The notes beneath the pieces are model-generated. The model was not told where the DNA came from. It saw only the letters and a program-made list of their open reading frames with translations, and did not search any database. Shown here in pieces: positions 27,971 to 57,846 of a stretch of 64,000 nt of DNA. Position 1 is the stretch's first letter, and each line of letters begins with the position of its first letter. The position numbers were made by a program, and so were the translations under genes. Origin of the DNA: a virus (taxonomy: Duplodnaviria > Caudoviricetes); IMG/VR virus record IMGVR_UViG_3300010283_000005, positions 64,001-128,000 of that record; one strand, 5' to 3'.

Positions 27971-27999
27971 TATAAACGTATCTATGAAAAAATTTACTC
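27971..27999 (-). promoter_or_regulatory. Phage promoter motif GAGY-N17-CGTTTATA
   Basis: Reverse strand reads GAGT-17 nt-CGTTTATA upstream of the minus-strand gene. Confidence 0.75.
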
Positions 28000-28017
28000 A
28001 AATTTAGTAAAAACCTT

Positions 28018-28046
28018 TTGACATTTGACGTAAAATGTGTTATAAT
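28018..28046 (+). promoter_or_regulatory. Host sigma-A/70 early promoter 1
   Basis: TTGACA-17 nt-TATAAT with extended TG and an A/T-rich UP region. Confidence 0.9.
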
Positions 28047-28070
28047 TAGTATAGGGGGTAACTAAATATA

Positions 28071-28099
28071 GAGTAATTAGAAGGTGATGAACGTTTATA
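28071..28099 (+). promoter_or_regulatory. Phage promoter motif GAGY-N17-CGTTTATA
   Basis: GAGT-17 nt-CGTTTATA between the two sigma-A promoters. Confidence 0.75.
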
Positions 28100-28189
28100 G
28101 GTAAGGAAAGGAAGGTTTCGGCAAATTGCCCAAATTTCACACCCTAGATTTGGTCAAAACGCTGAAATTTAAAAATTTGCTAAAAACGT

Positions 28190-28218
28190 TTGCAATTTGA
28201 CGTAAAATGTGTTATAAT
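28190..28218 (+). promoter_or_regulatory. Host sigma-A/70 early promoter 2
   Basis: TTGCAA-17 nt-TATAAT with extended TG. Confidence 0.85.
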
Positions 28219-28304
28219 TAGTATAGGGGGTAACTAAATATAGCAAGATGAGGTTACCAACTAAGCTTAAGAAGAAATTCACTTAAATAAGGAGTTCCAT
28301 TAAA

Positions 28305-29285
28305 ATGGCAGAGAACAAAGAATTCAAATTTGAAGGTAACGAAGTTGATCTTGAGGAAGTCCTCAAGTGGGCAAATGGTCTGGTTAAGGAAGCTAAGGCT
28401 AGCAAGGCTGATGAAAAGATGAACAAGGTTAAGGAGATCGTTGAGGGAGTTGCTCGTAAGTATGCTTCCAAGTGGATCGATCGCGAAGACCTGGAGCAGG
28501 ACTTGTGGGTATCTAGCTTGGAGCTCATCAATCGTTGCGGAGGAATTGAAAATACCGACCTCAAGCTCATCGCTAAGAATGCTTGGAATAAGGCAGTTGA
28601 CTCCTACCGCTACAACCGCAGAAGACATGATTCCAAAGTTCGCTTGATTGATGAGAGCGAATCCGACGATGGTGATTATTCTGCTGGTGGAGCGGATCAA
28701 GCTCAGTACTTCACAGCCAAATCAAGGACAGGCTATGATGAAGCAATTCTGAGAGAGGTAATCGATCTCTTCCCTGAAGGATCCAGACAGCGTAAGTATG
28801 TGGTCGCTAAGCTGTACTCCTATGGTGAAATCGATGACAACTCCGGATTGCCTGATGAACTTCAGCTCCCTGAGGCTGATGACGAAGCGAGCTTCCTGAA
28901 GCTGATCGGATTCAACTCCCGTTATCCTGCTTCTTGGGGCAAGATGAAATATGAAATCCGTGAGAAGATCTACCGTTACTTAGGTCTGATGCCGGAGTCT
29001 TACGAAGACGATCCTAAGAAAATGCTCGAGTGCATCCGTGATCGAGTTGAGACCTTGTTCAGTGAGACTCGTTCTGGATACATTGGTTTGGACAGGCTTG
29101 CAAAGGATAAGGTTCTGATCCTGATGGGTGCAAATGAAGATCGCATCTGGGAAGCTATGACTTCCAGCAGAAAGCTCCTCAGAGGACTCACTGCTCAGGG
29201 TGGCAAGTTCTTAATGAAGGACGAGCCTAGATACCACAAGAACTCCGAGAAGAACCACGATGTAATCATTCCTCGTGAGAAATAA
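28305..29285 (+). CDS. Phage RNA polymerase sigma-factor-like protein
   Basis: VARKY...DREDLEQDLWV..LE...AWNKAVDSYRYNRRR resembles sigma70 region 2; LREVIDLFPE...R resembles the start of region 4; sits behind strong host promoters. Confidence 0.7.
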   Translation: MAENKEFKFEGNEVDLEEVLKWANGLVKEAKASKADEKMNKVKEIVEGVARKYASKWIDREDLEQDLWVSSLELINRCGGIENTDLKLIAKNAWNKAVDSYRYNRRRHDSKVRLIDESESDDGDYSAGGADQAQYFTAKSRTGYDEAILREVIDLFPEGSRQRKYVVAKLYSYGEIDDNSGLPDELQLPEADDEASFLKLIGFNSRYPASWGKMKYEIREKIYRYLGLMPESYEDDPKKMLECIRDRVETLFSETRSGYIGLDRLAKDKVLILMGANEDRIWEAMTSSRKLLRGLTAQGGKFLMKDEPRYHKNSEKNHDVIIPREK

Positions 29286-29300
29286 GAGGACAGGCTATCG

Positions 29301-29330
29301 GTCAGCTCTGAGCAATCGGAGCTGACTTTT
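29301..29330 (+). terminator. Intrinsic terminator
   Basis: GTCAGCTCTGA-GCAA-TCGGAGCTGAC-TTTT. Confidence 0.85.
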
Positions 29331-29347
29331 GTCGTCAGACGTTTATA
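29319..29347 (+). promoter_or_regulatory. Phage promoter motif GAGY-N17-CGTTTATA
   Basis: GAGC-17 nt-CGTTTATA overlapping the terminator. Confidence 0.75.
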
Positions 29348-29538
29348 ATTTTGGTAGGACTTGGAACTCAGGATTTCCTAAGCCGTTCCGCAAGGGGCAA
29401 ACTCCTCTAATCACCTCGTGAGAAGCCGTCAGAAGCTCGTAGAAGCGTTTGATTTGCTTTGGCGAAGGGGCGGAAGGGTGCGAAATCAAAGCGTTCTAGA
29501 GCCTTATAGAAGCCAATTAAATGAAAGGAGATATCAAT

Positions 29539-30303
29539 TTGTATGGCTACATATATGAAACTACTAATCTAATCAATGGCAATAAATACATAGGTCAGCA
29601 TGTATCTGAAGAATTTGATCCTAATTATAAAGGATCAGGCAAGTTACTATGGCGAGCTATCAATAAGTATGGATGGGATAACTTCTCAGTGAGGGTGCTC
29701 TGTCCATGCTTCAGTCAAGAAGAACTAAATGAAGAAGAGATAATGGCTATAGCTCACTTCAACGCAGTAGAATCTACTAATTACTACAACTTAGCAGCTG
29801 GAGGTCAAACTGGTCATCTAGCTGGTAGTAGATTATCTGAAGATACTAAACTCAAGATGAGTCAATCGCATAAAGGATTAATGGTAGGCGAATCAAACCC
29901 TATGTATGGTAGATCTCCTAGTGCACAGACTAGAGCAAAGCTAAGCAAGTCACTACATGGCAAATTAGCTGGTAGTAAGAATCCTAGATATGGATATAAA
30001 ATGACTCCTGAGGAGAATTCTCATTTATCTGAGCTTACTTCAGGGGAGAATAATCCATTCTATGGAAAGAAACACTCTGCAGAATCATTAGCTAAGATGA
30101 GATCAGCTAAGCTAGGAGATCGTAATCCAGGTGCTAATAAAGTCTGGATTACTAGAAATGGTAAGAATAAGAGAGTCCATCCAGATGAACTAGACGTTTA
30201 CATTCAAGAAGGATGGAAGAAAGGAAGGTATGTAACAGATGAAACAAGAAGGAAATGCTCAGAACGAAACCTTAGAAGGTATCACCCAGAGTTATTCAGC
30301 TGA
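29539..30303 (+). CDS. GIY-YIG homing endonuclease (HEG2)
   Basis: TTG start after AAGGAG; YIYETTNLINGNKYIG; NP(M/F)YG NUMOD3-like repeats. Confidence 0.9.
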   Translation: MYGYIYETTNLINGNKYIGQHVSEEFDPNYKGSGKLLWRAINKYGWDNFSVRVLCPCFSQEELNEEEIMAIAHFNAVESTNYYNLAAGGQTGHLAGSRLSEDTKLKMSQSHKGLMVGESNPMYGRSPSAQTRAKLSKSLHGKLAGSKNPRYGYKMTPEENSHLSELTSGENNPFYGKKHSAESLAKMRSAKLGDRNPGANKVWITRNGKNKRVHPDELDVYIQEGWKKGRYVTDETRRKCSERNLRRYHPELFS

Positions 30304-32179: not shown

Positions 32180-32189
32180 GGAGGTATCC

Positions 32190-33077: not shown

Positions 33078-33648
33078 GAAATGTAACTTATGCAAAGAAG
33101 CCACTAAACAATGCTTCCCATCTGGATCAGATCATCCTTTGATCTATATCGTAGGAGAAGCTCCAGGTAAGGAAGAAGATGAAGCAGGAGTACCATTCGT
33201 AGGCAGATCCGGACAATTACTCCGAGAAGCACTGCGTACCGTAGGAATCTCGGAGGATCAGTTCAGATTATTTAATATCGTTAGATGTATCCCTAGAAAT
33301 AATCGAGGAGTACGAGCTCCTAGCGATGAGGAGAAATCTGCTTGTCATGAGTACCTGTATGCAGATATTGTGAAGCATCAACCTGGAGTTATCCTGACTC
33401 TAGGTGGATCTAGTAGTTCGTATCTTCTTGGAGATAAATTCTCGACAATAACTAGGACTCGAGGTATCTTGAATAGAGATATGACTATCAGCTATCAGTG
33501 GAATGGTAATACCTACAGCTACACTACTGCTATCATCGCCTCATTCCATCCATCTTACCTGCTCCGCAATGGTAAGAATCCTGAGTTAATGGATAAATTG
33601 TATCATGATATCTCTCTAGCTAGAGACTATGCTATAGGTAGAATCTAG
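33067..33648 (+). CDS. Uracil-DNA glycosylase, family 4
   Basis: C..C.LC, VGEAPG.EED..G.PFVGRSG, NIVRC.P and FHPSYLLR motifs. Confidence 0.9.
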   Translation: MICEKCNLCKEATKQCFPSGSDHPLIYIVGEAPGKEEDEAGVPFVGRSGQLLREALRTVGISEDQFRLFNIVRCIPRNNRGVRAPSDEEKSACHEYLYADIVKHQPGVILTLGGSSSSYLLGDKFSTITRTRGILNRDMTISYQWNGNTYSYTTAIIASFHPSYLLRNGKNPELMDKLYHDISLARDYAIGRI

Positions 33649-33677
33649 AGTAATCTAGGTCTACCTTTACGTTTATA
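33648..33677 (+). promoter_or_regulatory. Phage promoter motif (18-nt spacer)
   Basis: GAGT-18 nt-CGTTTATA. Confidence 0.65.
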
Positions 33678-33701
33678 CATTATGGAAAGGATGGTGCTGA
33701 G

Positions 33702-35516: not shown

Positions 35517-35604
35517 ATTACCTTACCTTAAAAAGTATATAATAATAAATAATATATTATAATTATTAATTTAATTATAATAGATAGATAAGGAGATAAG
35601 AATT

Positions 35605-35805
35605 ATGAGTAAAGTTAGCATTCAGATGAATGATCAATCTATCAGAGATAGAGTAAAGGAGAATGATGGATACTGTATTTGTTCATTAGTTAGAACTGAA
35701 GATACTAAATGCATGTGTAAGGAATTCAGATCTACTGAAGCTACTTCAGAAGGAGTAACTTGCCATTGTGGATTGTACACTAAGTATCTCAAGGAGGATG
35801 AGTAA
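35605..35805 (+). CDS. Ferredoxin-thioredoxin reductase catalytic-subunit-like small Fe-S protein
   Basis: GYCIC...KCMC...CHCGLY. Confidence 0.7.
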   Translation: MSKVSIQMNDQSIRDRVKENDGYCICSLVRTEDTKCMCKEFRSTEATSEGVTCHCGLYTKYLKEDE

Positions 35806-36707
35806 TGAAGAGAGTCTTATTCACACATATTGATCTCGATGGAGTAGGTAGTAGGCTTATGGTTCAGCTAATCTATCCTGATATTGAGATTTATCATGTA
35901 GATTACAATTTTGAATCAGATATGAATAATCGTAAGATTATGGCTGATGCTGATTCGATCATCTTCACTGATATCTCAATCAATCGAGATATGGCTGAGT
36001 TACTAGAGTCTACTAGACAGCAGGGTAAGGAATTACTGCTGCTTGATCATCATGCATCTGCACTCGAAAATTTAGGTGACTTAGGGTACGAGTGGCTACA
36101 TATAGATACTTCTCAGTCAGGAGCACTACTTGCCTACCATTACTTTGAGAATGAGATCAAGTCTAAGTATCCTAATGATGCTGCCAATTATGAGATAGTC
36201 GCTAAGCTAGTAAGTGACTATGACCTATGGGAGCATAAGTACTCTCAGTCAGTAGTTCTTCAGTTTTACTGGAGCAAGGTAGGCAATGAGGATTTCATCA
36301 GGAGATTCCTTCAGAACTCGAGTGCAGTATTCACTCCTGAGGAGCAATCTCTCATCAAGGAATCTGAGGACGCATTAGCAGAATCGTATCAGATTGCATC
36401 ATCCAATATGGAATGGGAGACTGATAGCTATGGTAGGAAGTGGATCCTGATCAAGAACATCGGATTGATGTACAGCTTAGTAGCATCGAGAATTCTTAAG
36501 GAGAATCCTGATGCAGTCTACTGCGTAGTAATGGGTAAGAAGAATAACCTCAGTTTTAGAAGTACTGGATTTGATGTCAAGTCTATTGCTGAGAAGCTAG
36601 GCGGTGGAGGGCATCCTCAAGCCGCTGGATGCTCGATTCCTCAAGGATTGATTGATATTCCATCATCAGTCAATTATCAGGAATGGGCTGAATATCCGTT
36701 CAAGTAG
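35805..36707 (+). CDS. DHH/DHHA1 phosphoesterase
   Basis: THIDLDG, TD, LDHH, DYDLW, SFRS and GGGGHPQAAG motifs. Confidence 0.9.
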   Translation: MKRVLFTHIDLDGVGSRLMVQLIYPDIEIYHVDYNFESDMNNRKIMADADSIIFTDISINRDMAELLESTRQQGKELLLLDHHASALENLGDLGYEWLHIDTSQSGALLAYHYFENEIKSKYPNDAANYEIVAKLVSDYDLWEHKYSQSVVLQFYWSKVGNEDFIRRFLQNSSAVFTPEEQSLIKESEDALAESYQIASSNMEWETDSYGRKWILIKNIGLMYSLVASRILKENPDAVYCVVMGKKNNLSFRSTGFDVKSIAEKLGGGGHPQAAGCSIPQGLIDIPSSVNYQEWAEYPFK

Positions 36708-36727
36708 CTAAATAAAGCTATCGTTCG

Positions 36728-36756
36728 GAGCAAATTAAGTAATTGAGACGTTTATA
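36728..36756 (+). promoter_or_regulatory. Phage promoter motif GAGY-N17-CGTTTATA
   Basis: GAGC-17 nt-CGTTTATA. Confidence 0.75.
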
Positions 36757-36784
36757 CTTGTGAAGTTTGAAAGGAGGTACGTAA

Positions 36785-39509: not shown

Positions 39510-40523
39510 ATGAAAGAATTTAATGAGAAGTTTGACATCACCAAGGTAGTGACTCCCTTGACGGAGCTCATCGTAGTCGATCCTGACACAGTTCAGGACT
39601 CTGGCAAGAACTATTATTCACTGAGCTCGGATGCAGCTAAACGACTTGCTAGCGTCACTAGTATGAACAATGCTACGTTCAGCCGTAAGCTGTATCAGAC
39701 TGATGCTGAGTGCTGGAGAATGCTCTTCAATAAGAAGACTTCTCTCAAGGAAGTAGCAGAACTTATGGCTAAGAATAATGCAGTACTGGTCGATGACAGT
39801 ATGCTGATGCTGGCTGAAGGAGATACTCATATCGAGGATGTAGTTCGTAGTATCAATAAGTTTGTCGAGGATGATTCCTTGAGTACTTGCTATCAGCTGT
39901 ATGATCAGAATCAGCTTATGGTAATTGCTACCAATGCTGAAACTCATCGTGGAGTACTGATTCAGTACTATATGTCTGCTAATTGGGTTGTAGTATCTAA
40001 CTGCTACTTCAATAAAGCTGAGAAGCATTTCTTCATCTCTCCGTTTACTGAGCTCGATGTACGAGTTGATGAGGATATTGAAGCTCTGATGGAGAAAGAT
40101 ACTCTGATCTCTAATAGTGGAGCATTTATCGAGATGGTTCTTGATAAGAATCGAGAGAGAATGGCTAATACATACATGTCTGTCGAGGAGTTCTGCTGGT
40201 ACATGAAGAAACTGTTCAAGATCAAGCTGACTATCGACAAATTCAGTATTTTTGATTATGCAGCTGATCATGAGGAACTCAGTGGTCGAGCTACTCAGCT
40301 GATGTCTGATCTGATCGATAAGTTCTATATCGATGATACTGATCCGATGCTGGTGAATGCAGCATGGCTGAAGAAGTCTATTCAGATGACTCGCATTAGT
40401 TATCAGGATTTCAGCAATCTGCTTGAAACTTTAGTCATCGAGGATGTGATTCCAGTGAATGTGCTTCAGGACTTCCAGTCCAAGGTTATCAAGAAGGATA
40501 CTCATTATAATCAGCTCAACTAA
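39510..40523 (+). CDS. Hypothetical protein
   Basis: 337-aa ORF with AAGGAGG RBS. Confidence 0.7.
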   Translation: MKEFNEKFDITKVVTPLTELIVVDPDTVQDSGKNYYSLSSDAAKRLASVTSMNNATFSRKLYQTDAECWRMLFNKKTSLKEVAELMAKNNAVLVDDSMLMLAEGDTHIEDVVRSINKFVEDDSLSTCYQLYDQNQLMVIATNAETHRGVLIQYYMSANWVVVSNCYFNKAEKHFFISPFTELDVRVDEDIEALMEKDTLISNSGAFIEMVLDKNRERMANTYMSVEEFCWYMKKLFKIKLTIDKFSIFDYAADHEELSGRATQLMSDLIDKFYIDDTDPMLVNAAWLKKSIQMTRISYQDFSNLLETLVIEDVIPVNVLQDFQSKVIKKDTHYNQLN

Positions 40524-40556
40524 TTCGAAAAATTTACTAAATAAAGTGATATTTCG

Positions 40557-40585
40557 GAGCAAATTAGCCTGTTCGGACGTTTATA
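40557..40585 (+). promoter_or_regulatory. Phage promoter motif GAGY-N17-CGTTTATA
   Basis: GAGC-17 nt-CGTTTATA; shares TTCGGAGCAAATTA with the 36728 copy. Confidence 0.75.
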
Positions 40586-40653
40586 TGTTTGGAAAGGTTG
40601 GAAAGCAAGCAACCTTGCTAAGAAACTTAATTCAAATATGGAGGATAACGAAC

Positions 40654-41193
40654 ATGGAAGAAGCAATGGTAATGACAGAAGACATAAGGAAGGCATTTGA
40701 GCCTAGAATCCAGCAACTGAATGCAATCGCTGAGGAGCTGATCGCTACAAATACGAAGGATGAGTACGGGTACCTGGTAACAGGAATCTCTAAGCTCACT
40801 TCAATGATGCTGGATTGCGAGCAGTACAACACGGAGATTGATCCTGATGGTGAGGCTATCCTGACGGAGCGAGTGGTCAAAGTTAATCGCTACATCAAGA
40901 ATGTGTTTCTTGACCTGCATGGTGTGGATCGTACCGTAGTCGGAGGATTGTTCATCGCAGTCCCAGTGTATCTGCTCCCTGCGAATAAGGTGAACAAGGC
41001 GATCAAGAACCGATACAAATCAGTGATCAATCCTGAGGAGTATGGACTTCCTAGTGAGGAAGTGTGCAACTACTGCACATTCAAACCGATCTCTGCAACT
41101 GCGTACATGGCAGTAGCTAAGTTTGAGGGCAACTATGCCAACGAGCTGATTACCACTGCACGAAACTATGATTACGTTTACCTCAAGAAATAA
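40654..41193 (+). CDS. Hypothetical protein
   Basis: GGAGG RBS before ATG 40654; the track start at 40459 is probably over-extended. Confidence 0.65.
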   Translation: MEEAMVMTEDIRKAFEPRIQQLNAIAEELIATNTKDEYGYLVTGISKLTSMMLDCEQYNTEIDPDGEAILTERVVKVNRYIKNVFLDLHGVDRTVVGGLFIAVPVYLLPANKVNKAIKNRYKSVINPEEYGLPSEEVCNYCTFKPISATAYMAVAKFEGNYANELITTARNYDYVYLKK

Positions 41194-41207: not shown

Positions 41208-42713
41208 ATGATAGAGATACTCAACAATTTCCTCAAGGTGAGAAGCTCCGATAAGGAGCTTTTCTCTATCCTTAAGGATTATCTCCGTATCGTCGATGAT
41301 TCTGATAAAGACAATGTTATCCTTCAAGACTTGTTTACAGTAGACGATAACGGAGACATGCTCATCCCTCGAGGTCTCGATCAGTTTATTCCAGATCAAG
41401 TCCCTAGGGTGAATCAGGAGAAGATTCTGATACCTAGGGACTTTTCTATTGATTACGAAAACCTAGCTCATAAATTCGGTAGCATTGTAATGAGAGATGA
41501 TCAGTTAATTGGTATCAGAAAGATGCTTATGCTAAGACGAGGTATCATGCAGTTAGCTACTGGAGCAGGTAAAACGGAAATCATGACAGGATTCCTGATG
41601 GCACTCGAGGAGATATGTGGTAAATATCCTACCACGATTATACTTGAGCCTACTACTTTGCTAGTTGATGCAACTGTAGAGAGGATGAATAAGTACGGAG
41701 TACCTGCAGTGCCTTATTCTGAATCTAGAGGAGTGATCGAAGGGATCATGGTCACTCACCCTAGCTCACTTAATAATGATCTCAAGAAGAATCCAGACTT
41801 ACTGAAGAATCTGAAAGTATTCCTTAGTGATGAAGGTCATCATCTGCAGGCAGATACTTGGAATCGCTTACTGAAGAGTGCTCCTGGTATCGAATTCAGC
41901 ATAGCTATGTCAGCCTCAGTAATTAACCCTGCTAGGATTCCAGTGACTGAGCTTAATCACTTGGATTATGGCGAAGCACTAGTGATCGGAGCTACTGGCA
42001 ATATCATACTGAACATACCTCCATCATTCTACATCGAAGCTGGAATTCTAGCTACTCCAATTCTGTACCGAATCATGAATAGTGCTGATGAATGGATCAA
42101 GCGAGATAATGATTGGCATCAGATTCGTAAGTATCGATTGGAATCTCCTAAGCGTACTATGCTTCTAGCTAAAATCTCGACATTCTTAGCTAGTGTCCAT
42201 TATAAGAGCCTGATCCTAGTAGGTACTAAGGAGCATGCATATCGTATCCTGGAGCTAGTACATTCCTATGGATTAGGAGATGTCTGCAGATGCTCATTCG
42301 GAGGAGGAGTGTACTTCAAGTACGATAATCAGTCAGATAAAGTAGTCAAATGCAAGAATGAGGATACTATGGATGGCTTTAAATCTGGGGAGTTCAAGAT
42401 TCTGATCGGTACTTCTCATATCTATGAAGGAGCTGATATCCCTGACTTGGATGTGATTATTCTAGCTAGTGTAGGCAAGGGACTGAGGAAGTACATTCAG
42501 GGAGTAGGTAGAGGACTTCGTAGAAGCAAGACAGGTAAGTATGCTCATATTGTTGACTTTACTGATCATTATGATCGAGTTCTAAATAAGCATAGCTTGG
42601 ATAGACTAGACATGTTCAGAACTGTGATTGGAGTCAGCGATACTAACATCTATGAATCCTTGAGTTTTGAGAGATTCAAGGAAGTATTCTGTAGAATCGA
42701 AGGAATCTGCTGA
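41208..42713 (+). CDS. SF2 DNA helicase (UvsW-like)
   Basis: ATGAGKT, DEGHH, SAS, EGADIP and QGVGRGLR motifs. Confidence 0.9.
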   Translation: MIEILNNFLKVRSSDKELFSILKDYLRIVDDSDKDNVILQDLFTVDDNGDMLIPRGLDQFIPDQVPRVNQEKILIPRDFSIDYENLAHKFGSIVMRDDQLIGIRKMLMLRRGIMQLATGAGKTEIMTGFLMALEEICGKYPTTIILEPTTLLVDATVERMNKYGVPAVPYSESRGVIEGIMVTHPSSLNNDLKKNPDLLKNLKVFLSDEGHHLQADTWNRLLKSAPGIEFSIAMSASVINPARIPVTELNHLDYGEALVIGATGNIILNIPPSFYIEAGILATPILYRIMNSADEWIKRDNDWHQIRKYRLESPKRTMLLAKISTFLASVHYKSLILVGTKEHAYRILELVHSYGLGDVCRCSFGGGVYFKYDNQSDKVVKCKNEDTMDGFKSGEFKILIGTSHIYEGADIPDLDVIILASVGKGLRKYIQGVGRGLRRSKTGKYAHIVDFTDHYDRVLNKHSLDRLDMFRTVIGVSDTNIYESLSFERFKEVFCRIEGIC

Positions 42714-42742
42714 GAGCTCAATGAAGCTCTAGAACGTTTATA
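42714..42742 (+). promoter_or_regulatory. Phage promoter motif GAGY-N17-CGTTTATA
   Basis: GAGC-17 nt-CGTTTATA. Confidence 0.75.
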
Positions 42743-42771
42743 CTTGTGTAAGTTGAAGGAGGTAGCTTAAA

Positions 42772-45234
42772 TTGAATATCGAATCGTCATCCGAGTTTCA
42801 ACGCATCGTACTGTCAACTGTGATCAAAGATACCTACATGTTCACTCGAACTAGTAGATACATAACTGAGGAATTTTACGATAAGTATCAGTACAAGCTT
42901 ATCTACAAGTCTCTGAAGTACTACTACGATAAGTACTCCAAACTTCCTAGTCTGGATGAATTGTTGGTAGTTATCGCTGAGTTCAATAATTCTCAGGTAT
43001 GTGATCTTAATACAGTCCGACAGGAGTGCATTGATCTCTATAATACTCCTCGTTATGAGGAAAATTTCGTGATGGATAAAATCACTACGTTCATTCGTAG
43101 AAATAATGTTGAGAAGACTTTGAAGGATTATCTTCCTAAGCTCAACAATGGTGAGTCCATTGCAATTGATACAATTGGTGAGGAACTCATGAAGGGATTG
43201 AGTTTTAGCATCATGAAATCTTCAGCATTCCGTCTTAGTGATGTGAATGAAATCTCTTCAGTACGTAAATCTGCAATTGGTACTGAAGATAATCCCTTGA
43301 TTATCAAGTCCTTTATTGAAGGCATCAATCAGTCCTTGCAGTTCAAGGGTTATAAACCTGGAGATCTGATCATGGTATGCCTAGTAGGCAGTACTAAGAT
43401 CATGACTCTCGATGGAAAACCTCATACTATTGAGGAACTTTATGATTTATCTCAGAAGGGAATCAATAAGGGTATATATACAATCGATCCTTACGAGATG
43501 AAGAAAGATCGTTATTGTGCAGTCGAACCTACTACCTATGCTAAAGTCGAACTTACTAAATATGTGACTGATACAGTAAGAATTACCCTTGATAATGGAT
43601 CTATAGTAGAAACTACTCCTGATCATCGATTCTTACTCAGATCAGGAGAGTATGTAGAAGCTATTGACTTAAGTATCGACGATTCTTTGATGCCTATTTA
43701 CAAAGATTATCGTAGAGTAGCTCCTCAGGATCTAGTAGATAAGTCTGAAGGCTATGAGTGCATCAGGGATGGAAATGGTAGATGGGATTATACTCATCGT
43801 AGAGTAGCAGAACTTATTCCAGGTATATCTGAGTATAATTCTCAAGTACATCATCTCGATGATAATCGTCTCAATAATGATTTTGATAACCTAGGCTGGA
43901 TATCTAGATCAGAGCATATGTCTATTACTAGCAAAGCTAGAGCTGCTAGAGGAGAGATCCTAGGCAGACCTTATAGAAAAGGTGAGCATCATGGTAGAGA
44001 GATTCGAAAGGGAGAGCATCTGAGTCCTGCTACTGAGTACACTTCTGAATACATCAGAGATCGTAATCTCAGGAATTGGAGTGATCCTGATTATCGTGCT
44101 AAGATGACTGAACACATGCTTAGAATTGCTAAGGATCCTGAAATTCTCAGGAAACGAGAAGTCAGTAGAGTTCTCAAAGCACTAAATAGAATCATTGCAG
44201 TATATGGTAGAGATCAGGTTACAATTGAGAGCTATCAGAATCTGATCCCTTCTGCTGGAAGTAGAAAACCTACTATCTGGAATATAGCTGATAAGTTCAA
44301 CTGTTTGAATGAATCTAATGAGGTAGATGAAAATCTTCTAGAAAGTCGTTGGGATGAAATCCTTGATAAGGCTGAAAGTTTCAATCATTATATTGTCAAT
44401 ATTGAATATGTTCACTATGATGAAGCTATCCCAGTATATGATATCATCAATGCTGGACCTTACAATAACTTTGCTATTGATTTAGGAGATGATTCTGGAA
44501 TCTTTGTGCATAATTGTGCTGCACCTGGTGTCGGTAAAACTATGTTCATGATCAATGAAGGTGCGAATGCATCCATGCAGGGATTCAAAGTTCTGCACTT
44601 ATTCTTGGGAGATATGAAAGAGTACGATGGATTTGTTAGATACTCGTCCAAGTACACTCAGATTCCTCAGGATGACATCGTAGGAATGTCGATTGAGCAA
44701 CAGCAAGAAATGATCAGAAAGTTCAATATGCAAGGGTACTTCTCGAACATTGTAGTTGCTGCTTATGCTGCTGGTGAAATCACTATCGATGAAATGGTGC
44801 AGGAAGTTTATCGACTTCAGGATGAAAATCATATGCATTTTGATATGATTTTAGTAGACTATGCGGATAACTTACTTCCTGATTCTGATATGATGTATGA
44901 ATCAGGTGGTAATATCTATAATAAGCTGTCACTCTTAGGCTCCAAGAATCGTAGTGTAATCATTGTAGGTTCTCAGCCTAAGCCAGCGTACTGGGATGAT
45001 GAAATCATTCCTAAGAATGCTGCTGCTGATTCAAGTAGAAAGCAGCATGTCATTGATGTGATGCTCACTATGGGTATGACCAATCGAGGGTCAAGCATTG
45101 GCTCGATCTTCATGCCTAAGGTCAGACGAGGTAGTGAGGGCAAAATTATTCGTATCCAAACCTACTTCGAGAGAGCTCATCTGGAAGCTATCTCTGAACA
45201 GGAATACCTGAAGTTGAAAGGTGGGCAAGGATAA
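42772..45234 (+). CDS. dnaB: Replicative DnaB-like helicase containing an intein
   Basis: Exteins join as GDLIMV/CAAPGVGKT; LVDYAD, SQ and ADS..K motifs. Confidence 0.85.
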   Translation: MNIESSSEFQRIVLSTVIKDTYMFTRTSRYITEEFYDKYQYKLIYKSLKYYYDKYSKLPSLDELLVVIAEFNNSQVCDLNTVRQECIDLYNTPRYEENFVMDKITTFIRRNNVEKTLKDYLPKLNNGESIAIDTIGEELMKGLSFSIMKSSAFRLSDVNEISSVRKSAIGTEDNPLIIKSFIEGINQSLQFKGYKPGDLIMVCLVGSTKIMTLDGKPHTIEELYDLSQKGINKGIYTIDPYEMKKDRYCAVEPTTYAKVELTKYVTDTVRITLDNGSIVETTPDHRFLLRSGEYVEAIDLSIDDSLMPIYKDYRRVAPQDLVDKSEGYECIRDGNGRWDYTHRRVAELIPGISEYNSQVHHLDDNRLNNDFDNLGWISRSEHMSITSKARAARGEILGRPYRKGEHHGREIRKGEHLSPATEYTSEYIRDRNLRNWSDPDYRAKMTEHMLRIAKDPEILRKREVSRVLKALNRIIAVYGRDQVTIESYQNLIPSAGSRKPTIWNIADKFNCLNESNEVDENLLESRWDEILDKAESFNHYIVNIEYVHYDEAIPVYDIINAGPYNNFAIDLGDDSGIFVHNCAAPGVGKTMFMINEGANASMQGFKVLHLFLGDMKEYDGFVRYSSKYTQIPQDDIVGMSIEQQQEMIRKFNMQGYFSNIVVAAYAAGEITIDEMVQEVYRLQDENHMHFDMILVDYADNLLPDSDMMYESGGNIYNKLSLLGSKNRSVIIVGSQPKPAYWDDEIIPKNAAADSSRKQHVIDVMLTMGMTNRGSSIGSIFMPKVRRGSEGKIIRIQTYFERAHLEAISEQEYLKLKGGQG
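43378..44514 (+). mobile_element. Intein (379 aa) with HNH endonuclease
   Basis: Begins CLVGSTKI; block B TPDHRF; HHLDDNRLNN..NL HNH; ends VYD...NF...GIFVHN followed by Cys+1. Confidence 0.93.
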
Positions 45235-46784: not shown

Positions 46785-46788
46785 TCAA

Positions 46789-47784
46789 GTGACTGTTAAT
46801 ATCTATAATAAGAAAAACTACATCATATCTCAGATGGGAGAAGATTATATAGATGCAGGTCACTTCGAGATGAGGTATCAATGTCCATTCTGTATGGATC
46901 AAGGACTTCGTTATGATGATTACAAATTGTATGTGAATTATGCCAAGGGAGTTTATTGGTGCCACCGATGTGAGTCAACTGGTATCATTCAGATGGATTC
47001 ATTGCTCACTCAGGGTTCTAATTCTGATGCTTCCAATTATCTTGAAGCATATATGAAAGCATTGAGTGGTAGTGATTCTAATTCTGAAGAAGAATCTAAT
47101 TACTATCTGATTCCTAAGAATATACCAATGCCTGGCACCTTAGCTTGGGATTATCTGATTTCTAGAGGAATAACTCCAGCAGATATGAGCTTCTACAATA
47201 TCAGAATTCCTGGATTGCATGATGAATCTAAATTTAAGGGTAGAATCATCATCCCTAATAAGGTCATCAGTAATATATGGACTGACTTGTACGTAGCTAG
47301 AACATTCATTGATGATCCAGTTCGTTATAAGAATCCATCTTCAAGTAAGGCTCACGATATAGTATTCAATTTGCATCGGATACCTGATAATCCTGAGCGT
47401 ATCATCTTGAATGAGGGTGCCATAAATTCGATAATTGCTGGAACTGATTCGATTGCTACTTATGGCAAGCACGTATCAGATATTCAGCTTAACCAGATTC
47501 TGCAGAAGCATCCTAAGAGACTATATGTATCATTAGATACTGATGCAGAGAATATCGCTGAAGAGTTGTGCAGGAGAATCAAATCCCTTAGTGATACTAA
47601 GTTATATCTATTGGAACTCCCTCAGGTTTGGAGTGAGTCTGATAAGAAATACAAGGGATTGGATGCTTCTGATCTAGGTAGAGATAGATACTTAGGATAT
47701 GTAGACTCGGCTAGAGAGTACACTTCTAGTAGTATCTTCACTATCGAGAAGTACATGACTTCTATAGTGGATGGAGCTAAATGA
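46789..47784 (+). CDS. DNA primase (Zn finger + TOPRIM)
   Basis: CPFC..CHRC, YL.SRG, RIIIP, Y.NP, EG, LDTDA and DASD; GTG start after AGGAGG. Confidence 0.85.
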   Translation: MTVNIYNKKNYIISQMGEDYIDAGHFEMRYQCPFCMDQGLRYDDYKLYVNYAKGVYWCHRCESTGIIQMDSLLTQGSNSDASNYLEAYMKALSGSDSNSEEESNYYLIPKNIPMPGTLAWDYLISRGITPADMSFYNIRIPGLHDESKFKGRIIIPNKVISNIWTDLYVARTFIDDPVRYKNPSSSKAHDIVFNLHRIPDNPERIILNEGAINSIIAGTDSIATYGKHVSDIQLNQILQKHPKRLYVSLDTDAENIAEELCRRIKSLSDTKLYLLELPQVWSESDKKYKGLDASDLGRDRYLGYVDSAREYTSSSIFTIEKYMTSIVDGAK

Positions 47785-47802
47785 GCTCCTCAACCGTTTA
47801 TA
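47774..47802 (+). promoter_or_regulatory. Phage promoter motif GAGY-N17-CGTTTATA
   Basis: GAGC-17 nt-CGTTTATA. Confidence 0.75.
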
Positions 47803-47905
47803 CTTATGTAAGGGTCGGACCAACTCAGCAATGGGTTGAGACTTCTTAATAAAGATCTGTATGATCTAAGAACAACAAAACTAAGTCGTAAAGGAGAACA
47901 AAGAA

Positions 47906-50545: not shown

Positions 50546-50560
50546 TCTAGGAGGTATAAA

Positions 50561-52858: not shown

Positions 52859-52873
52859 CAAGGACGTCTCAGG

Positions 52874-52902
52874 GAGCTATCAGGCTTTCTGAGACGTTTA
52901 TA
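52874..52902 (+). promoter_or_regulatory. Phage promoter motif GAGY-N17-CGTTTATA
   Basis: GAGC-17 nt-CGTTTATA. Confidence 0.75.
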
Positions 52903-52930
52903 CTTATAGGACAGGAAAGGATGTGATTTA

Positions 52931-55900
52931 ATGTTATGTGAAGATTGTTATCTGAATGGGACTTGCAATCCTATATTTCCATCTGGATCAGATAATCCTG
53001 ATTTTTATGTAATAGGTGACCTTGCTACTCAATACGAGAGCGATGCTAATCAGGTATTTTCCATAAATTACCCAGCAGGTCAGTACCTTATGAATACAAT
53101 GATGTCCTTAGGTATGACTGCTGAGAATACTCGATTATTCAAGACTATTAGATGCTATCAAAAGACTTATACTGAGGACAATGAAGCATTGAGATCTCGA
53201 TGTGGTGTATTTGCTACTATGGATATCTACAAGCATAATCCTAAGATTATCATTGCACTCGGATCTGAAGTATCTAAGTATTTCATCAAGGATAAGTTCT
53301 CATACATTTCTAATGCTCGAGGTCGTATCTATGACGTAGAGATCAATGGTAAGATGTTCAAGGTTATGCCTACGTACAGTCCAAATTACGTAGTGAATAA
53401 TCCGAACCAAGCTGAGTCGTTCACTAATGATCTGCTTCATGCAATCTCTTACGTGAATGGTGAATTGATCGATATTGCTCAGAAAGATCTCCAGTATGCT
53501 CAGAATTATGAGGAATTCAAGACTTATTTCGATGAGCATCTAGCCAATGCAGAAATGCCTTCGTACGACTTGGAGACTAACGCTAGGGATCCTAGAAGTC
53601 AGGAAGCTCGTATGGTCGGATTCTCCTTGGCACCTGATGGGAGTACTGGTATCTATGTGGTAAGAAATTCTCTGGAGTATAAGATGCCAGAGGAAGACTG
53701 GAAGAAGATTGTCTCTCTAGTAATCGAGAAAGTCCTGAAGCAGAAGAAAGTTCTAGTACATAACTGTATGTACGAGATTCCGTTCACTGAGAATGAATGG
53801 CAATATTATATTCAGAACTTCGAAGATAGCTTGATCAAGGCTAGGCTTCTGCTGGGTGGCAAAATCGGTGCTGGTTTGAAGGATCAGTGTATTAAGAATC
53901 TAGGTTATCCTGACTGGGATAGCGACCTAGATATGTACAAATCCGCATTTATGCAGCTACTAGGTAAGCTTAAGCCTACTCCTGGTGGCAGGAATCGTTG
54001 GGATCTAGATTTCATCAGGAATCGAGGATTAGTAGCTCTGTATGATGAGTACGAACGTATCTTGAATGAGTCAGGGTTGGATGCTCGTTGCACTAATAAC
54101 TACAATGCAGTGTCTCGAATCAGAGATGTATGCTTAAAGTACTATACTACTGAGGCGGAGTATGCTATCATCATGGAGCTCGTAGGCGAAGAGATCGTAG
54201 CATTGATTGATGCAGGATACTCTGGACCATTCTCCTATGGATTTATTCCAATGAAAGTTATCACCAAGTACGGTGCTATGGATTCAGTTGGTACTCAGGA
54301 CTTGAATGAGTATCTTGATAAGCAGATCACTGATTATTCTAAACAATTAGGTATCGATCTGCGAGTAGGATACGATTACATGAAGCGTCACTACATTGCT
54401 GGTACCTGGATGGAGATGAATGGACTGTACTGGAATAACGAGGTAGCTGAGCAGGAGAAAGCTTGGTATGCAGAGCAGTGCTTGAAATCTGAACTAGCTA
54501 TGATCGATTCTCCATTCTTGGATGAGACCTTATTCCTTGAGCAGAGATGGATCTTCAATGATTATCTGGTCGAGAATAATCTGGATCTAGTAAGAGCTCA
54601 GCTCGGAGACTTTGATATCATGAAGTCTGGTATCAAACTCAGAACTACTGGAGAACTTATTAAATTCAAGGATATCTTGGAGCGTATGGGTAAAGAGTTC
54701 ATTGATTACAATCGTACTTTTATGCTTCAGTTAATTCGATCTAAGGCTCGTGAGCATAAGGATTATAAGGAACTTAAGTATATGTTCAATCCAGCTTCAC
54801 CTAAGCAGTCAACTAAGGATCTGATCAATAGTATCTTAGTAACTGATGAGATTCGAGTAGCTTACTTGATGAATAAGCTGAATGTCATGCTTGATGATCC
54901 TGAGTTTGACTTGCAGAAGTATCCTATGTCGGATAGACCGTTATTCCAGGTACTGATCGATGGTAAGAAGTATAATAAGTATGTTGATGAGTACAATAAG
55001 CGATTGGATGATGACGAGAATGATAAAGATATCATGGAAGAGCTTCAGGAACCTGAGTTCTACTCTGATGCATTCTCGAATGGAGTCGATTCCGAGGATG
55101 AGGATGATGAATCAGGTAAGGGTAGGAAAGTCAAACTTACTACTGGAGACTTGTTCCAGAAGTTTGTAGAGACTTTCTCCAAGATTCAGCTAAGATCAAG
55201 AGAGATTCAGCTATTAGCATCTGAAGCATTGAACTACAGACTAGATTCAGTATCCGAAGGTAACATTATTGAGCTGAATAGCTACTATGTGATCTCTGGA
55301 GTAGTACTCGATGACCAATCAACTTGGACTGATCGTTACTGGTTCTTAGTGAACTTCCGTATGTGGAAGAAATGCAATAAAATGATCACTACTTATATTG
55401 ATGGTCGTAAGGTTGGTCGAGGATCAGTCTGGATCGTTGATGAAGCTGATCTTGATACTGGAGAGCTTCTGACTAGACGTAAACGATTGTATGATGGTCT
55501 TCCTAAGGAGGGAGAATGCTGTGTAATGCAGCCTACCTACAAGGTATGTACAGCCAATTCGTTCAGATGGCAGGCTGGTATGCATACGATTCCTGCTGAG
55601 TCGAGTATCAAGAATATCTATACTTCGAGGTACGAAGGAGGATGTATTGCTGCACCTGACTTCTCGCAGATGGAGCTCCGTACAATGGCTGGTGCATCTC
55701 AATGTACTGCAATGATCGAAGCATTCCGAGCTGGTGCTGATATCCATATGCAGAATGCTTGTAAGATTTTCAAGAAGAAACCTGAGGATGTTACTTCTGC
55801 AGAACGACGTTATTCTAAGATGGCATCCTTCATGATCCTGTATGGTGGCGATTATCGTAACTTTGGTGAGGAGTTCTTGGATGGAGATATCAAGCTGGCT

Positions 55901-56590
55901 AAGTACATCTACGATTCTTTCTATGAAGCTTACCCTGAAGTAGCTCAGTATATCGAAGCTAAGCATGAGGAGATGAAGAAGTACGGCAAGGTAACTACCT
56001 TGATGAATATGTTCCTGAGTATCAGTCCTGAAGATGATGTCTGCCGAGGAGATGAGGGTAAGGCATTGCGTATTGCTCAGAACGCTCCTATTCAGTCTGC
56101 TGCTTCGATGATTGCAGGATGCTGCCTGTATGAGATTATGAAGTTCATTGTTGATCATAACATGAAGAGTAAGATCATTCTGTTTGTTCATGACTCCATC
56201 GAGGTAGATATTCATCCAGCAGAGATGCTCCAGCTAGCTTCTCAGATCGTGCCTATGATGAATAAATTCCCTAACGAGCAGTTCAACATGCCAGTTAAAG
56301 CTGACCTGGTTTTAGGTAAGTCTATTGGTCAGGAAGTCACCATTGAAGAAATTCATTGTAATGAAGATTTCACTGAGGGTGAGATGGTCTGCGAAGCTTA
56401 TGAACATGACTTCATGGCATTGATGAATGAGTGGAAGAAAGTCTACAAATCAGTTACCTGGGAAGATATCGATGAGCCTAAGGAAAAATATCTTAGCTGG
56501 AATCAGCTTTGGATTTCTAAGCTCGCAGTTCAGAAGGGATATGGTGTTACTAATACAGTAGTTCATCGTAGAGTCAAGGTGATCATCTGA
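52931..56590 (+). CDS. polA: Family A DNA polymerase with N-terminal UDG-like domain and 3'-5' exonuclease
   Basis: DLET, HN..YE and Y...D exonuclease motifs; DFSQMELR, R..SK...F..LYG and VHDS polymerase motifs. Confidence 0.92.
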   Translation: MLCEDCYLNGTCNPIFPSGSDNPDFYVIGDLATQYESDANQVFSINYPAGQYLMNTMMSLGMTAENTRLFKTIRCYQKTYTEDNEALRSRCGVFATMDIYKHNPKIIIALGSEVSKYFIKDKFSYISNARGRIYDVEINGKMFKVMPTYSPNYVVNNPNQAESFTNDLLHAISYVNGELIDIAQKDLQYAQNYEEFKTYFDEHLANAEMPSYDLETNARDPRSQEARMVGFSLAPDGSTGIYVVRNSLEYKMPEEDWKKIVSLVIEKVLKQKKVLVHNCMYEIPFTENEWQYYIQNFEDSLIKARLLLGGKIGAGLKDQCIKNLGYPDWDSDLDMYKSAFMQLLGKLKPTPGGRNRWDLDFIRNRGLVALYDEYERILNESGLDARCTNNYNAVSRIRDVCLKYYTTEAEYAIIMELVGEEIVALIDAGYSGPFSYGFIPMKVITKYGAMDSVGTQDLNEYLDKQITDYSKQLGIDLRVGYDYMKRHYIAGTWMEMNGLYWNNEVAEQEKAWYAEQCLKSELAMIDSPFLDETLFLEQRWIFNDYLVENNLDLVRAQLGDFDIMKSGIKLRTTGELIKFKDILERMGKEFIDYNRTFMLQLIRSKAREHKDYKELKYMFNPASPKQSTKDLINSILVTDEIRVAYLMNKLNVMLDDPEFDLQKYPMSDRPLFQVLIDGKKYNKYVDEYNKRLDDDENDKDIMEELQEPEFYSDAFSNGVDSEDEDDESGKGRKVKLTTGDLFQKFVETFSKIQLRSREIQLLASEALNYRLDSVSEGNIIELNSYYVISGVVLDDQSTWTDRYWFLVNFRMWKKCNKMITTYIDGRKVGRGSVWIVDEADLDTGELLTRRKRLYDGLPKEGECCVMQPTYKVCTANSFRWQAGMHTIPAESSIKNIYTSRYEGGCIAAPDFSQMELRTMAGASQCTAMIEAFRAGADIHMQNACKIFKKKPEDVTSAERRYSKMASFMILYGGDYRNFGEEFLDGDIKLAKYIYDSFYEAYPEVAQYIEAKHEEMKKYGKVTTLMNMFLSISPEDDVCRGDEGKALRIAQNAPIQSAASMIAGCCLYEIMKFIVDHNMKSKIILFVHDSIEVDIHPAEMLQLASQIVPMMNKFPNEQFNMPVKADLVLGKSIGQEVTIEEIHCNEDFTEGEMVCEAYEHDFMALMNEWKKVYKSVTWEDIDEPKEKYLSWNQLWISKLAVQKGYGVTNTVVHRRVKVII

Positions 56591-57405
56591 TGTATGGCTA
56601 TATTTATAGAACTACTAATATAATCAATGGCAAGATCTATATCGGTAAACATAAGAGTGCAGAATTTGATCCTAATTATAAGGGATCAGGATCTGCACTA
56701 TGGAATGCTATCAACAAATATGGATGGAGTGCATTTCATACTGAGATGTTATCTAGGTGTTTCTCATTGGAGGAACTCAATGAAGAGGAGATCATGCTTA
56801 TCGCTCATTTTAATGCTACTGATAGATCTATTGGATACAATCTTTTAGATGGAGGAGATGGAGGATCACTCTATGGTGAGCTCAATAGCTTCTATGGCAA
56901 GCATCATACTAAGGAGACTCGAGGTATCATCAGTTCAGTACTTAGAGCCTCATGGCAGGATGAAGACTATCGCAATCGTCAGCATGAATCTAGATTAGGC
57001 AATCAGAATTCTGCAGGGACTATCTGGATTCATAAAGGTGACATTAATCATAGAGCTAATTTAGATAATATTGAGAATTATCTAGTGGATGGCTGGGAGC
57101 TAGGCTGCTCGCTAGCTTCTAGTGAAAAGAAGAGATTAGCTGCGATTGGTAGACAGAATAATCTAGGAAAAGTGAGAATTCATAAGGGTGAGCTAGGCAG
57201 AATGGTAGACAGATCTCAGCTAGAATTATATCTAGAATCAGGCTGGGAATTAGGAATGAAGCCTAGTGCTACTAGATCTAGACTAGGTAGAAATGCTCCG
57301 CCTAATCGTAGATACCATGTTACTTGCAAGGTATGTGGAAAGCAGTTCTTAGGAACTAGTCCCAAATCTAATAAATGTCCTGAATGTAAAGGAGGTGATA
57401 CATGA
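56590..57405 (+). CDS. GIY-YIG homing endonuclease (HEG5)
   Basis: YIYRTTNIINGKIYIG; two WIHKG...YL..GWELG repeats; terminal Zn ribbon. Confidence 0.9.
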   Translation: MYGYIYRTTNIINGKIYIGKHKSAEFDPNYKGSGSALWNAINKYGWSAFHTEMLSRCFSLEELNEEEIMLIAHFNATDRSIGYNLLDGGDGGSLYGELNSFYGKHHTKETRGIISSVLRASWQDEDYRNRQHESRLGNQNSAGTIWIHKGDINHRANLDNIENYLVDGWELGCSLASSEKKRLAAIGRQNNLGKVRIHKGELGRMVDRSQLELYLESGWELGMKPSATRSRLGRNAPPNRRYHVTCKVCGKQFLGTSPKSNKCPECKGGDT

Positions 57406-57818
57406 TGTTCCTGATATCTTTGAGTAGACTAGCTCTCGAGTATCGTAATAATCGATTACTCCTGGATAGTACTTATAAAACTTATAGTAGCTGGAATTAT
57501 GATCTTGATGGTTCTAGTACTAAGCACTTGCCTAAGTTGATTAGCAGATATAGTTCTATCGTAGCTGCTATAGAGGAGACTTACTGTGAGTACTCTATCA
57601 ATCTAGATTACCTAGATGCAGGGTCAGATAATCTGGTTAAGATTTTGCAGTATATCTCTAAACTGGATGATAAGGATATTCCTATGCAGCTGATGACTGA
57701 TAGGACTAAGAAAGTCCCTATCAGCATTGAAGCTCTCAATCAGATCTATAGTCGAGCAGAGTTATCCTACCGATTAGCTAATGCTTCTCAAGTTGAGGAT
57801 GAAGTTGTTATCGACTAG
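57402..57818 (+). CDS. Hypothetical protein
   Basis: AAAGGAGGT RBS inside the HEG5 3' end. Confidence 0.6.
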   Translation: MMFLISLSRLALEYRNNRLLLDSTYKTYSSWNYDLDGSSTKHLPKLISRYSSIVAAIEETYCEYSINLDYLDAGSDNLVKILQYISKLDDKDIPMQLMTDRTKKVPISIEALNQIYSRAELSYRLANASQVEDEVVID

Positions 57819-57846
57819 AGTAAATATATCACTAGATACGTTTATA
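57818..57846 (+). promoter_or_regulatory. Phage promoter motif GAGY-N17-CGTTTATA
   Basis: GAGT-17 nt-CGTTTATA. Confidence 0.75.

Follow-up and report, generated by a model that had tools for sequence, protein, structure and literature searches.

A protein of 326 amino acids, encoded by a phage of Gram-positive bacteria, is likely to be a phage sigma factor that resembles the extracytoplasmic function (ECF) type in carrying predicted domains sigma2 and sigma4. We propose that it is made from promoters of the host sigma-A type, and that it directs the host core RNA polymerase to 27 sites in the phage genome, each of which carries the -10 element CGTTTATA. The gene resides in the stretch of DNA analyzed here (hereafter 'the window', 64,000 nucleotides), which represents bases 64001-128000 of an IMG/VR record (IMGVR_UViG_3300010283_000005). 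The entire record of 142,407 base pairs is classed as complete, and its two ends carry an identical 123-base-pair sequence. The window has a G+C content of 40%, and nearly all of its genes are on the plus strand. Coordinates below are those of the window unless they are marked as genome positions.

The abundance and placement of CGTTTATA provide the first line of evidence. The window contains 10 copies, as compared with 1.11 expected from shuffled sequences (the largest count for any shuffle is 4, and 0 of 100 reach 10). A scan of the whole genome adds 17 copies outside the window, for a total of 27, of which 26 are on the plus strand and one is on the minus strand. This lone minus-strand copy precedes the only sizeable minus-strand gene of the genome. 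Every copy is intergenic and is oriented like the next gene. A single apparent exception within the window, the copy at 40578 inside an open reading frame (ORF) annotated at 40459-41193, is eliminated if translation begins instead at the ATG at 40654, with GGAGGA as its ribosome-binding site. The distance from a site to the next ORF ranges from 6 to approximately 1,000 nucleotides and is approximately 25-110 nucleotides in most instances, with the longest gaps containing RNA genes or ORFs missed by the gene caller. Genes for replication and nucleotide metabolism are found downstream of the motif. No copy is present in window positions 1-27970, nor anywhere between genome positions 36169 and 91970, a 56-kilobase block of head, tail and lysis genes. 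These results agree with an earlier note on this DNA, which had reported ten bipartite sites in the window that are always intergenic, with none noticed in the structural region. All ten sites exist at the positions given there, and the GAGY element is indeed located 17 nucleotides upstream in nine of them, with a spacing of 18 nucleotides at the site whose core begins at 33670.

Alignment of the 27 sites yields the consensus rGAGYwAAT-N12-A-CGTTTATA-yTTnTGTAAGG, in which rGAGYwAAT is the longer form of the -35 box and the A directly 5′ of CGTTTATA is present at 21 sites. Conservation extends from -22 to +19 as counted from the C of CGTTTATA, and includes the bases yTTnTGTAAGG downstream of the -10 element, where the start region is located. 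The earlier note lists neither these downstream bases nor the longer -35 box, nor the copies outside the window. A weight matrix built from these sites detects only one additional near-site genome-wide (CGTTTACA at genome position 14262), and therefore the set of sites is sharply bounded. The virion block yielded no weaker matches in the same scan. ECF promoters characteristically have a -35 element with an AAC core, a spacer of 16-17 nucleotides and a -10 element with a CGT core. All 27 sites carry the CGT core at a spacing of 16 nucleotides from the -35 hexamer, which in this phage is GGAGYA rather than an AAC type.

Given that the motif is known from its sequence alone, and that a conserved hairpin often occurs 3′ of it, the copies might represent some other intergenic signal, such as a repressor operator, an RNA processing site or the target of a homing endonuclease. 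This is very improbable for a motif composed of two boxes at a fixed spacing of 16-17 nucleotides, with strict orientation (26 of 27 copies point forward, and the one that is reversed precedes the only reversed gene). Moreover, the sites precede ORFs, one of them follows the terminator of the sigma-like gene, and none is found in coding sequence or in the late block.

If the sites are promoters, then their sequences suggest that transcription probably starts 5-7 nucleotides past CGTTTATA, within the conserved TGTAAGG. In short leaders, an AAGGAGG ribosome-binding site begins at TGTAAGG, and many long leaders have a stable 5′ hairpin that begins 0-2 nucleotides from the T of this sequence. The positions of the hairpins and ribosome-binding sites place the start just upstream. 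Hairpins at the extreme 5′ end are expected to stabilize transcripts in Bacillota.

The candidate reader of these promoters is encoded at 28305-29285 on the plus strand, and is recognized by weak hidden Markov model (HMM) matches, by its AlphaFold2 model and by structural matches. The family that it matches best, PHROG 37530, carries the label 'unknown function'. A HMMER search of 1.84 billion representative proteins returned 72 relatives in all, the closest of which are between 75% and 40% identical. Most are approximately 185-240 residues in length, and their alignments cover query residues ~35-228. In a family alignment of 65 sequences (the query plus 64 relatives), the Pfam model Sigma70_r2 matches 20 members and TIGR02937 (sigma70-ECF) matches 27, and almost all remaining matches are to other small sigma models. 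The conserved family motifs EDLxQELW and LIAxNxxNKAVDxYRxxRR, in this order, resemble by eye the pattern of ECF regions 2.2-2.4. The Pfam models for region 4 do not match the 326-residue protein, and comparison of its profile with the sequences of the PDB gave only marginal matches to ECF sigma factors (E 0.1-0.5).

The AlphaFold2 model based on the family alignment has a predicted local distance difference test score (pLDDT) of 89, and it exhibits a sigma domain 2 (residues ~16-110), a disordered linker (112-142), a domain similar to sigma region 4 (~143-228) and a winged helix (235-312). Residues 16-106 match domain 2 of sigma-A bound to -10 DNA (3ugo) with Z 8.0 and a root-mean-square deviation of 5.6 over 89 aligned residues, and this N-terminal domain also matches 1sig and the N-domains of SigE and pro-SigK. 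When residues 138-232 were refolded in isolation (pLDDT 90.6) and compared with 48,161 PDB chains, sigma region 4 filled every one of the top 15 ranks and 24 of the top 28. These matches (Z 3.9-5.0 over 58-71 residues) each fall at the -35-binding C-terminal domain of the target protein, and include SigL, SigB, the phiEco32 sigma factor, CnrH, SigD, BldN, SigW and sigma-28. It is the composition of this ranking, rather than the low absolute Z values, that persuades us to assign the modeled domain to region 4.

In the model, region 1.1 and domain 3 are lacking and the two sigma domains are joined by a short linker, and the sigma4 domain carries an insertion of approximately 20 residues. The predicted architecture is therefore the two-domain sigma-70 type of the small, ECF-like sort, as the HMM matches and the AlphaFold2 model together indicate for an ORF that the earlier note had called sigma-like. 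The C-terminal winged helix (window 29007-29240), which is present in a minority of the family, resembles the winged helices of the La motif and of ESCRT-II (Z 8-9). No second sigma gene in the genome is detected with Sigma70_r2, r4, r4_2 or the family profile.

The co-occurrence of the protein and the promoter in separate phage lineages is, in our view, the strongest evidence that the two function as a pair. Searching 50,697 phage records by tblastn with the 326-residue protein identifies only SP-15 (two records), Listeria phage LIS04 and Bacillus phage vB_BceM-HSE3, at approximately 30% identity. The gene order in HSE3 is that of the present phage: lysin, holin, sigma, a small gene and gyrB. 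HSE3 carries 34 copies of CGTTTATA and LIS04 carries 39, and four are present within the 20 kilobases of SP-15 that were examined. A scan of IMG/VR for the pattern of the -10 element plus start region uncovered an uncultured 98-kilobase phage (IMGVR_UViG_3300045988_148003, hereafter G001), which encodes a family homologue (E 8e-54) and has 17 copies of CGTTTATA. The sites of HSE3, LIS04, G001 and SP-15 share the design CGTTTATA plus yTTnTGTAA.

The comparison set also includes genomes that match the pattern by chance. The motif is not in excess in the 15 other IMG/VR contigs of this kind (as counted with ACGTTTATA), and 14 of them have no homologue, with one contig (G006) giving a marginal match (E 7e-8, covering 40 of 261 profile positions). 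Likewise, the family profile finds no homologue in phage SPO1, whose three copies of CGTTTATA are no excess. Further relatives from IMG/VR and metagenomes are limited to a few short contigs, one of which (L081) has a site directly after its sigma gene.

Streptococcus phage GXN1 encodes two homologues (E 1e-44 and 7e-27) and has just two copies of CGTTTATA, which is the level expected by chance. Unbiased k-mer statistics reveal that its most over-represented 8-mers all fall in aACGGTTATA. The sequence CGGTTAT occurs 32 times on the GXN1 plus strand, and about 31 of these copies read rACTT-N16-CGGTTATA-ctaaTGTAAGG. The GXN1 sites thus have the same architecture with a -10 element that is altered by one base. 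Each of the phages found to carry a homologue (HSE3, LIS04, SP-15, G001 and GXN1) has sites of this design, with totals of about 17-39.

Several features of individual relatives can be added. A second gene of the sigma family is present in HSE3 (MF418016, positions 68-433), LIS04 (OQ999172, 86569-87207) and GXN1 (PQ819873, 67778-68506), where it perhaps serves another temporal class of genes. The family gene is single in G001 and in the phage described here. Next to their sigma genes, HSE3, LIS04 and SP-15 also have reverse-oriented copies of the promoter.

This distribution bears on another way in which the sites might be read, namely by a host sigma factor assisted by a phage protein bound at the -35 box, a form of sigma appropriation known from MotA/AsiA of phage T4. 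The host factor could be sigma-A acting via TATAnT, or an ECF sigma acting via CGT. In this scheme, the activator would be the sigma-like protein itself, unless that protein has another role. Such an arrangement is compatible with the fact that CGTTTATAyT includes TATAnT, a match to five of the six positions of TATAAT, with the use of CGT-type -10 elements by ECF sigmas of Bacillota, and with the scores of the 326-residue protein, which are under the sigma HMM cut-offs. However, taking TATAnT as the -10 element leaves the -35 box 20 nucleotides upstream, beyond the reach of sigma-A, and gives the invariant CG no role in sigma-A promoters. Furthermore, the -10 element occurs in phages of Bacillus, of Listeria and of unknown gut hosts, and, with one base changed, in a phage of Streptococcus, only together with a homologue of the phage sigma, and the protein has both sigma domains. 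We therefore regard recognition by a host sigma factor as quite unlikely.

The lineages also appear to differ in a coordinated manner. The -10 element and start region are almost constant between lineages, while the -35 box retains its position and varies in sequence: GGAGYA in the present phage, AGAGTT in G001, GGCTCT in HSE3, GCTCkA in LIS04 and SP-15, and rACTT in GXN1. Within the predicted helix-turn-helix of sigma4, the second helix reads PAS[WF] in proteins associated with GAG, SG[SA]Y in those associated with GCTC, and SSGY with ACTT. This covariation is what a sigma-promoter pair should produce, although three classes are too few to tell co-adaptation from shared ancestry. The AAC-type -35 box of GXN1, together with CGT located 16 nucleotides after the -35 hexamer, also fits the suggestion in the earlier note that the CGT core recalls ECF promoters. 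The relatives form a natural specificity series, in which the -10 element is the same or one base off and at least four -35 boxes are matched by differing sigma4 helices. Such a series lets one test how small sigma factors recognize the -35 element, and it could also be a source of sigma/promoter pairs that are orthogonal to one another, for use in Gram-positive hosts.

The locus encoding the sigma-like protein suggests how the system might be set in motion. Two copies of a 72-nucleotide sequence (28000-28071 and 28172-28243, both on the plus strand) are located upstream of the gene. They are 89% identical overall, and their final 49 nucleotides are exact, which accounts for the 49-base-pair duplication that had been noticed previously. 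The first copy contains TTGACA-17-(TG)TATAAT at 28018-28046, which matches the sigma-A consensus at 12 of 12 positions and is the sole such match in the entire genome that is both intergenic and oriented with a gene. The second contains TTGCAA-17-(TG)TATAAT at 28190-28218. A promoter of the phage type is also located 5′ of the gene (28070-28111, core 28092-28099, plus strand). The gene is closed by a hairpin similar to an intrinsic terminator (29300-29327), which is followed by a T-run that extends the element to 29333 on the plus strand, and no other structure of this kind is found in the region. The 3′ arm of this hairpin holds the -35 box of the phage-type promoter whose core is at 29340. 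Thus, the paired near-perfect sigma-A promoters, the terminator, and the two phage-type sites that the earlier note had placed before the gene and over its terminator are all present. The sigma gene of G001 is likewise preceded by a near-consensus sigma-A promoter (TTTACA-17-TATAAT), with a spacer that opens with the same TTTGAC, which supports a role for host sigma-A in the cascade.

We envision the following series of events. Host RNA polymerase carrying sigma-A would fire the duplicated promoters at 28018 and 28190 and thereby produce the phage sigma. This protein would bind the host core polymerase and send the enzyme to rGAGYwAAT-N12-A-CGTTTATA, with domain 4 contacting the -35 box (GGAGYA, 16 nucleotides 5′ of CGT) and domain 2 contacting the -10 element. 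The predicted targets are its own gene from 28092, which would create positive feedback, the leftward gene from 27971, and 25 more transcription units. The regulon would include genes for replication, recombination and nucleotide metabolism as well as tRNA and small-RNA genes, and its presumed timing would make these 'middle' promoters. The virion and lysis block, which is free of such sites, would probably be activated by a third signal. The pairing of a phage sigma with its own promoters, as the earlier note had proposed, is favored by the fold, by the presence of a sole sigma-like gene, and by joint occurrence in six phage lineages with a lineage-specific -35 box.

Several observations weigh against this interpretation. 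The matches of the protein itself to sigma models are below their cut-offs, as evident for Sigma70_r2 (residues 45-106, E 0.01, 16.1 bits versus a cut-off of 24) and TIGR02937 (E 0.005, 16.4 bits versus 42.9). The VIA Z-scores of 4-8 are in a range described by the tool as common among helical domains, and Foldseek searches with the whole model and with the sigma4 domain gave nothing at E <= 0.001, with sigma chains frequent among the weak matches. The covariation between -35 boxes and recognition helices involves only three classes and could be due to mere shared ancestry. A clear sigma-A consensus is not found upstream of the sigma genes of HSE3 and LIS04. The mean folding energy of the leaders is -8.0 versus -6.8 in random segments (standard deviation 3.1), and so is not clearly lower. 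Finally, ORFs of 446, 464, 604 and 331 amino acids lack annotation and could therefore include an unrecognized polymerase or co-factor.

The last point raises the possibility that a phage RNA polymerase reads the sites. In addition to the several large unannotated ORFs, the conserved sequence spans the start site, as it does in promoters of single-subunit polymerases. However, no RNA polymerase family is detected among the scanned ORFs of at least 330 amino acids, and the largest unannotated ORFs (745 and 604 amino acids) either belong to PHROG families of unknown function or have no match. A bipartite motif with a variable 12-nucleotide spacer and a lineage-dependent -35 box is typical of sigma-dependent promoters, and the sigma-like gene co-occurs with the motif. 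A phage polymerase is accordingly a most improbable reader of these sites, and we continue to favor the phage sigma factor.

The remaining phage-type promoters in the window can be assigned to specific genes. The sole leftward example (27959-28000, core 27971-27978, minus strand) reads GAGTAAAT-N-CGTTTATA, with an AAGGAGG ribosome-binding site immediately after it. It is located directly upstream of a gene for a protein of 167 amino acids (27454-27957, minus strand). No other leftward gene of appreciable size is found in the ORF list for the genome. This gene forms a divergent pair with the sigma gene, and searches of Pfam, PHROGs and the ESM Atlas gave no match for it. All other promoters of this type in the window are on the plus strand. 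The promoter at 29318-29359 (core 29340) precedes genes for a GIY-YIG homing endonuclease and gyrB, and the only copy with an 18-nucleotide spacer (33647-33689, core 33670) precedes the gene for the 604-residue protein. A gene similar to topoisomerase/gyrase A follows the site at 36727-36768 (core 36749), and a small gene with a probable start at 40654 plus a DEAD-box/ResIII helicase gene follow the site at 40556-40597 (core 40578). The promoter at 42713-42754 (core 42735) serves an intein-containing DnaB-like helicase gene, and that at 47773-47814 (core 47795) is located before genes for a 371-residue protein and a RecA-like protein. The final two are found before a UDG-PolA fusion DNA polymerase gene (52873-52914, core 52895) and a gene with a nucleoside 2-deoxyribosyltransferase domain (57817-57858, core 57839).

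Additional sequence elements are associated with subsets of these promoters. An A/T-rich box, TTTACTAAAT(TT), lies just 5′ of the -35 element in several cases, for example at 36705-36725, 40530-40550 and 28000-28013, and may be an UP-like element. At the corresponding location, G001 carries TTAAATTTA. Six 5′ leaders outside the window (genome positions 1067, 9668, 11738, 15966, 20848 and 27156) have in common the sequence TTGnnGATAGAATCTagactGGAGG, which is located 5′ of the start codon and, in five of these leaders, 3′ of the hairpin that follows the promoter. The shared sequence may act as an RNA element of the leader, or it may represent a sigma-A promoter with an extended -10.

The gene content on either side of the sigma locus is distinct. 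Positions 1-27400 are occupied by virion genes, including those for tail and tail-fibre proteins, and this block closes with an endolysin gene (25443-26879) and a holin gene (26918-27385). From 28305 onward, the sigma-like gene is accompanied by genes for a GIY-YIG homing endonuclease, gyrase/topoisomerase subunits and helicases, and further downstream by those for the intein-containing DnaB, RecA, the UDG-PolA polymerase and an SbcC-like ATPase. The intein that splits the DnaB-like helicase (42772-45234) carries an HNH endonuclease. The GIY-YIG homing endonuclease gene right after the sigma gene (29521-30303) has a counterpart within the virion block (14160-14960) that belongs to the same PHROG family.

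The CGTTTATA-free virion block has a conserved sequence of its own. The 15-mer GCTTAmCCGTTAGAr occurs there, and only there, as four intergenic copies on the plus strand. They precede the portal and head module (genome 40395-40409), a gene for a 541-residue protein of the tail block (window 677-691, genome 64677), the tail-fibre gene (window 11233-11247, genome 75233) and the gene for a virion structural protein (window 13549-13563, genome 77549). From this placement, the 15-mer may be a late promoter. Late promoters of SPO1 have the sequence CGTTAGA-N17-19-GATATT (PMC3601020), and the 15-mer includes this -35 heptamer, CGTTAGA. An SPO1-type late -35 element can be dismissed, as there is no GATATT at a distance of 17-19 nucleotides and the start at one of the sites would fall in the ribosome-binding site. 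For these reasons, the 15-mer looks more like an element of the -10 type, with CGTT in common with the main promoter. It is absent from the relatives.

The UDG-PolA polymerase (52931-56590) offers a clue to the chemistry of the phage DNA. Among the 50,697 phage records, its only full-length relatives are in SP-15, HSE3 and LIS04, which are the same records that carry the sigma gene and promoter. SP-15 DNA contains bulky glycosylated replacements of thymine, and the SP15-like polymerase group is tied to hypermodified thymine (PMC13697223). This kinship suggests that the DNA of the present phage may be modified as well. An unlikely but consequential extension is that the sigma family constitutes the transcription arm of SP-15-like phages with hypermodified thymine, and reads its T-rich -10 element (CGTTTATA) in modified form. 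If true, the phage sigma could read newly replicated phage DNA that host sigma-A would read poorly, such that DNA chemistry rather than a protein inhibitor enforces the switch. The added winged helix might then assist in the reading of modified DNA.

The proposed assignment provides a candidate function for a PHROG family of unknown function (phrog_37530), and a directly readable promoter map for large Bacillota phages that include Thornevirus SP-15/LIS04, HSE3, GXN1 and uncultured gut phages. The layout is simple, in that one gene behind host-type promoters appears to unlock almost all non-structural genes. The earlier note had regarded the pair as probably uncharacterized. This holds with respect to the promoter, as we found no paper in the searchable literature that describes the promoter, the regulon or the function of a homologue. 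The only occurrences of CGTTTATA there are in primers or in unrelated contexts, and neither promoters nor sigma factors are mentioned in the SP-15 genome paper. It does not hold fully for the protein, because GenBank already annotates two homologues, HSE3 gp103 and LIS04_17, as 'sigma-70 family RNA polymerase sigma factor'. These proteins belong to the same family (29-31% identity) and have the same CGTTTATA promoters. They differ in having no C-terminal winged helix and -35 boxes of GGCTC/GCTC, and their annotation is by homology only.

Among well-studied systems, the cascade of SPO1 (sigma-A, then gp28, then gp33/gp34) is similar in that a large virulent phage of Bacillota has its small sigma gene transcribed by host sigma-A. 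There, the phage sigma redirects the core enzyme to bipartite promoters ahead of replication genes, and virion genes use another signal. Middle promoters of SPO1 have the consensus AGGAGA/TTTnTTT. Unlike the middle class of SPO1, nearly all non-structural genes of the present phage carry the phage promoter, and its protein has the extra C-terminal winged helix. No sequence relationship between the proteins is detectable, as evident by hhalign probabilities of 5.7%, 0.3% and 1.4% for SPO1 gp28, gp34 and gp2.21, respectively. Membership in a gp28-like sigma family can thus be rejected, given the insignificant hhalign scores, the failure of the profile to match in SPO1 and the lack of a motif excess in that phage.

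The similarities to ECF (group 4) sigma factors, such as SigW and SigX of Bacillus subtilis and SigE of Escherichia coli, involve both protein and promoter. The predicted sigma2 plus sigma4 core spans approximately 200 residues, the structural neighbors include SigL, SigW, SigK, CnrH and SigE, and the promoters have CGT at -10, located 16 nucleotides after the -35 hexamer, with a copy upstream of the sigma gene itself. The AAC type of -35 element is matched by AAACTT of GXN1, whereas GGAGYA of the present phage differs from GAAC. Other departures include scores under the family cut-offs, no anti-sigma partner identified here, a -10 element that is a long invariant 8-mer accompanied by a conserved start region, and the ~20-residue sigma4 insertion and winged-helix tail.

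Another parallel among small phage sigma factors that take over the host core polymerase is gp36 of phiEco32, an ECF-like sigma (PDB 9m7y chain F; PMC12276001). Its region 4 is the third-ranked structural match of the isolated sigma4 domain (Z 4.8). The phiEco32 protein differs in serving a phage of a proteobacterial host and in giving no match at the sequence level, and its partner gp79, which displaces sigma-70, has no comparable partner identified in the present phage. Considered together, these comparisons suggest that the 326-residue protein most likely works like SPO1 gp28 and phiEco32 gp36 in function, and like an ECF sigma in its fold and promoter.

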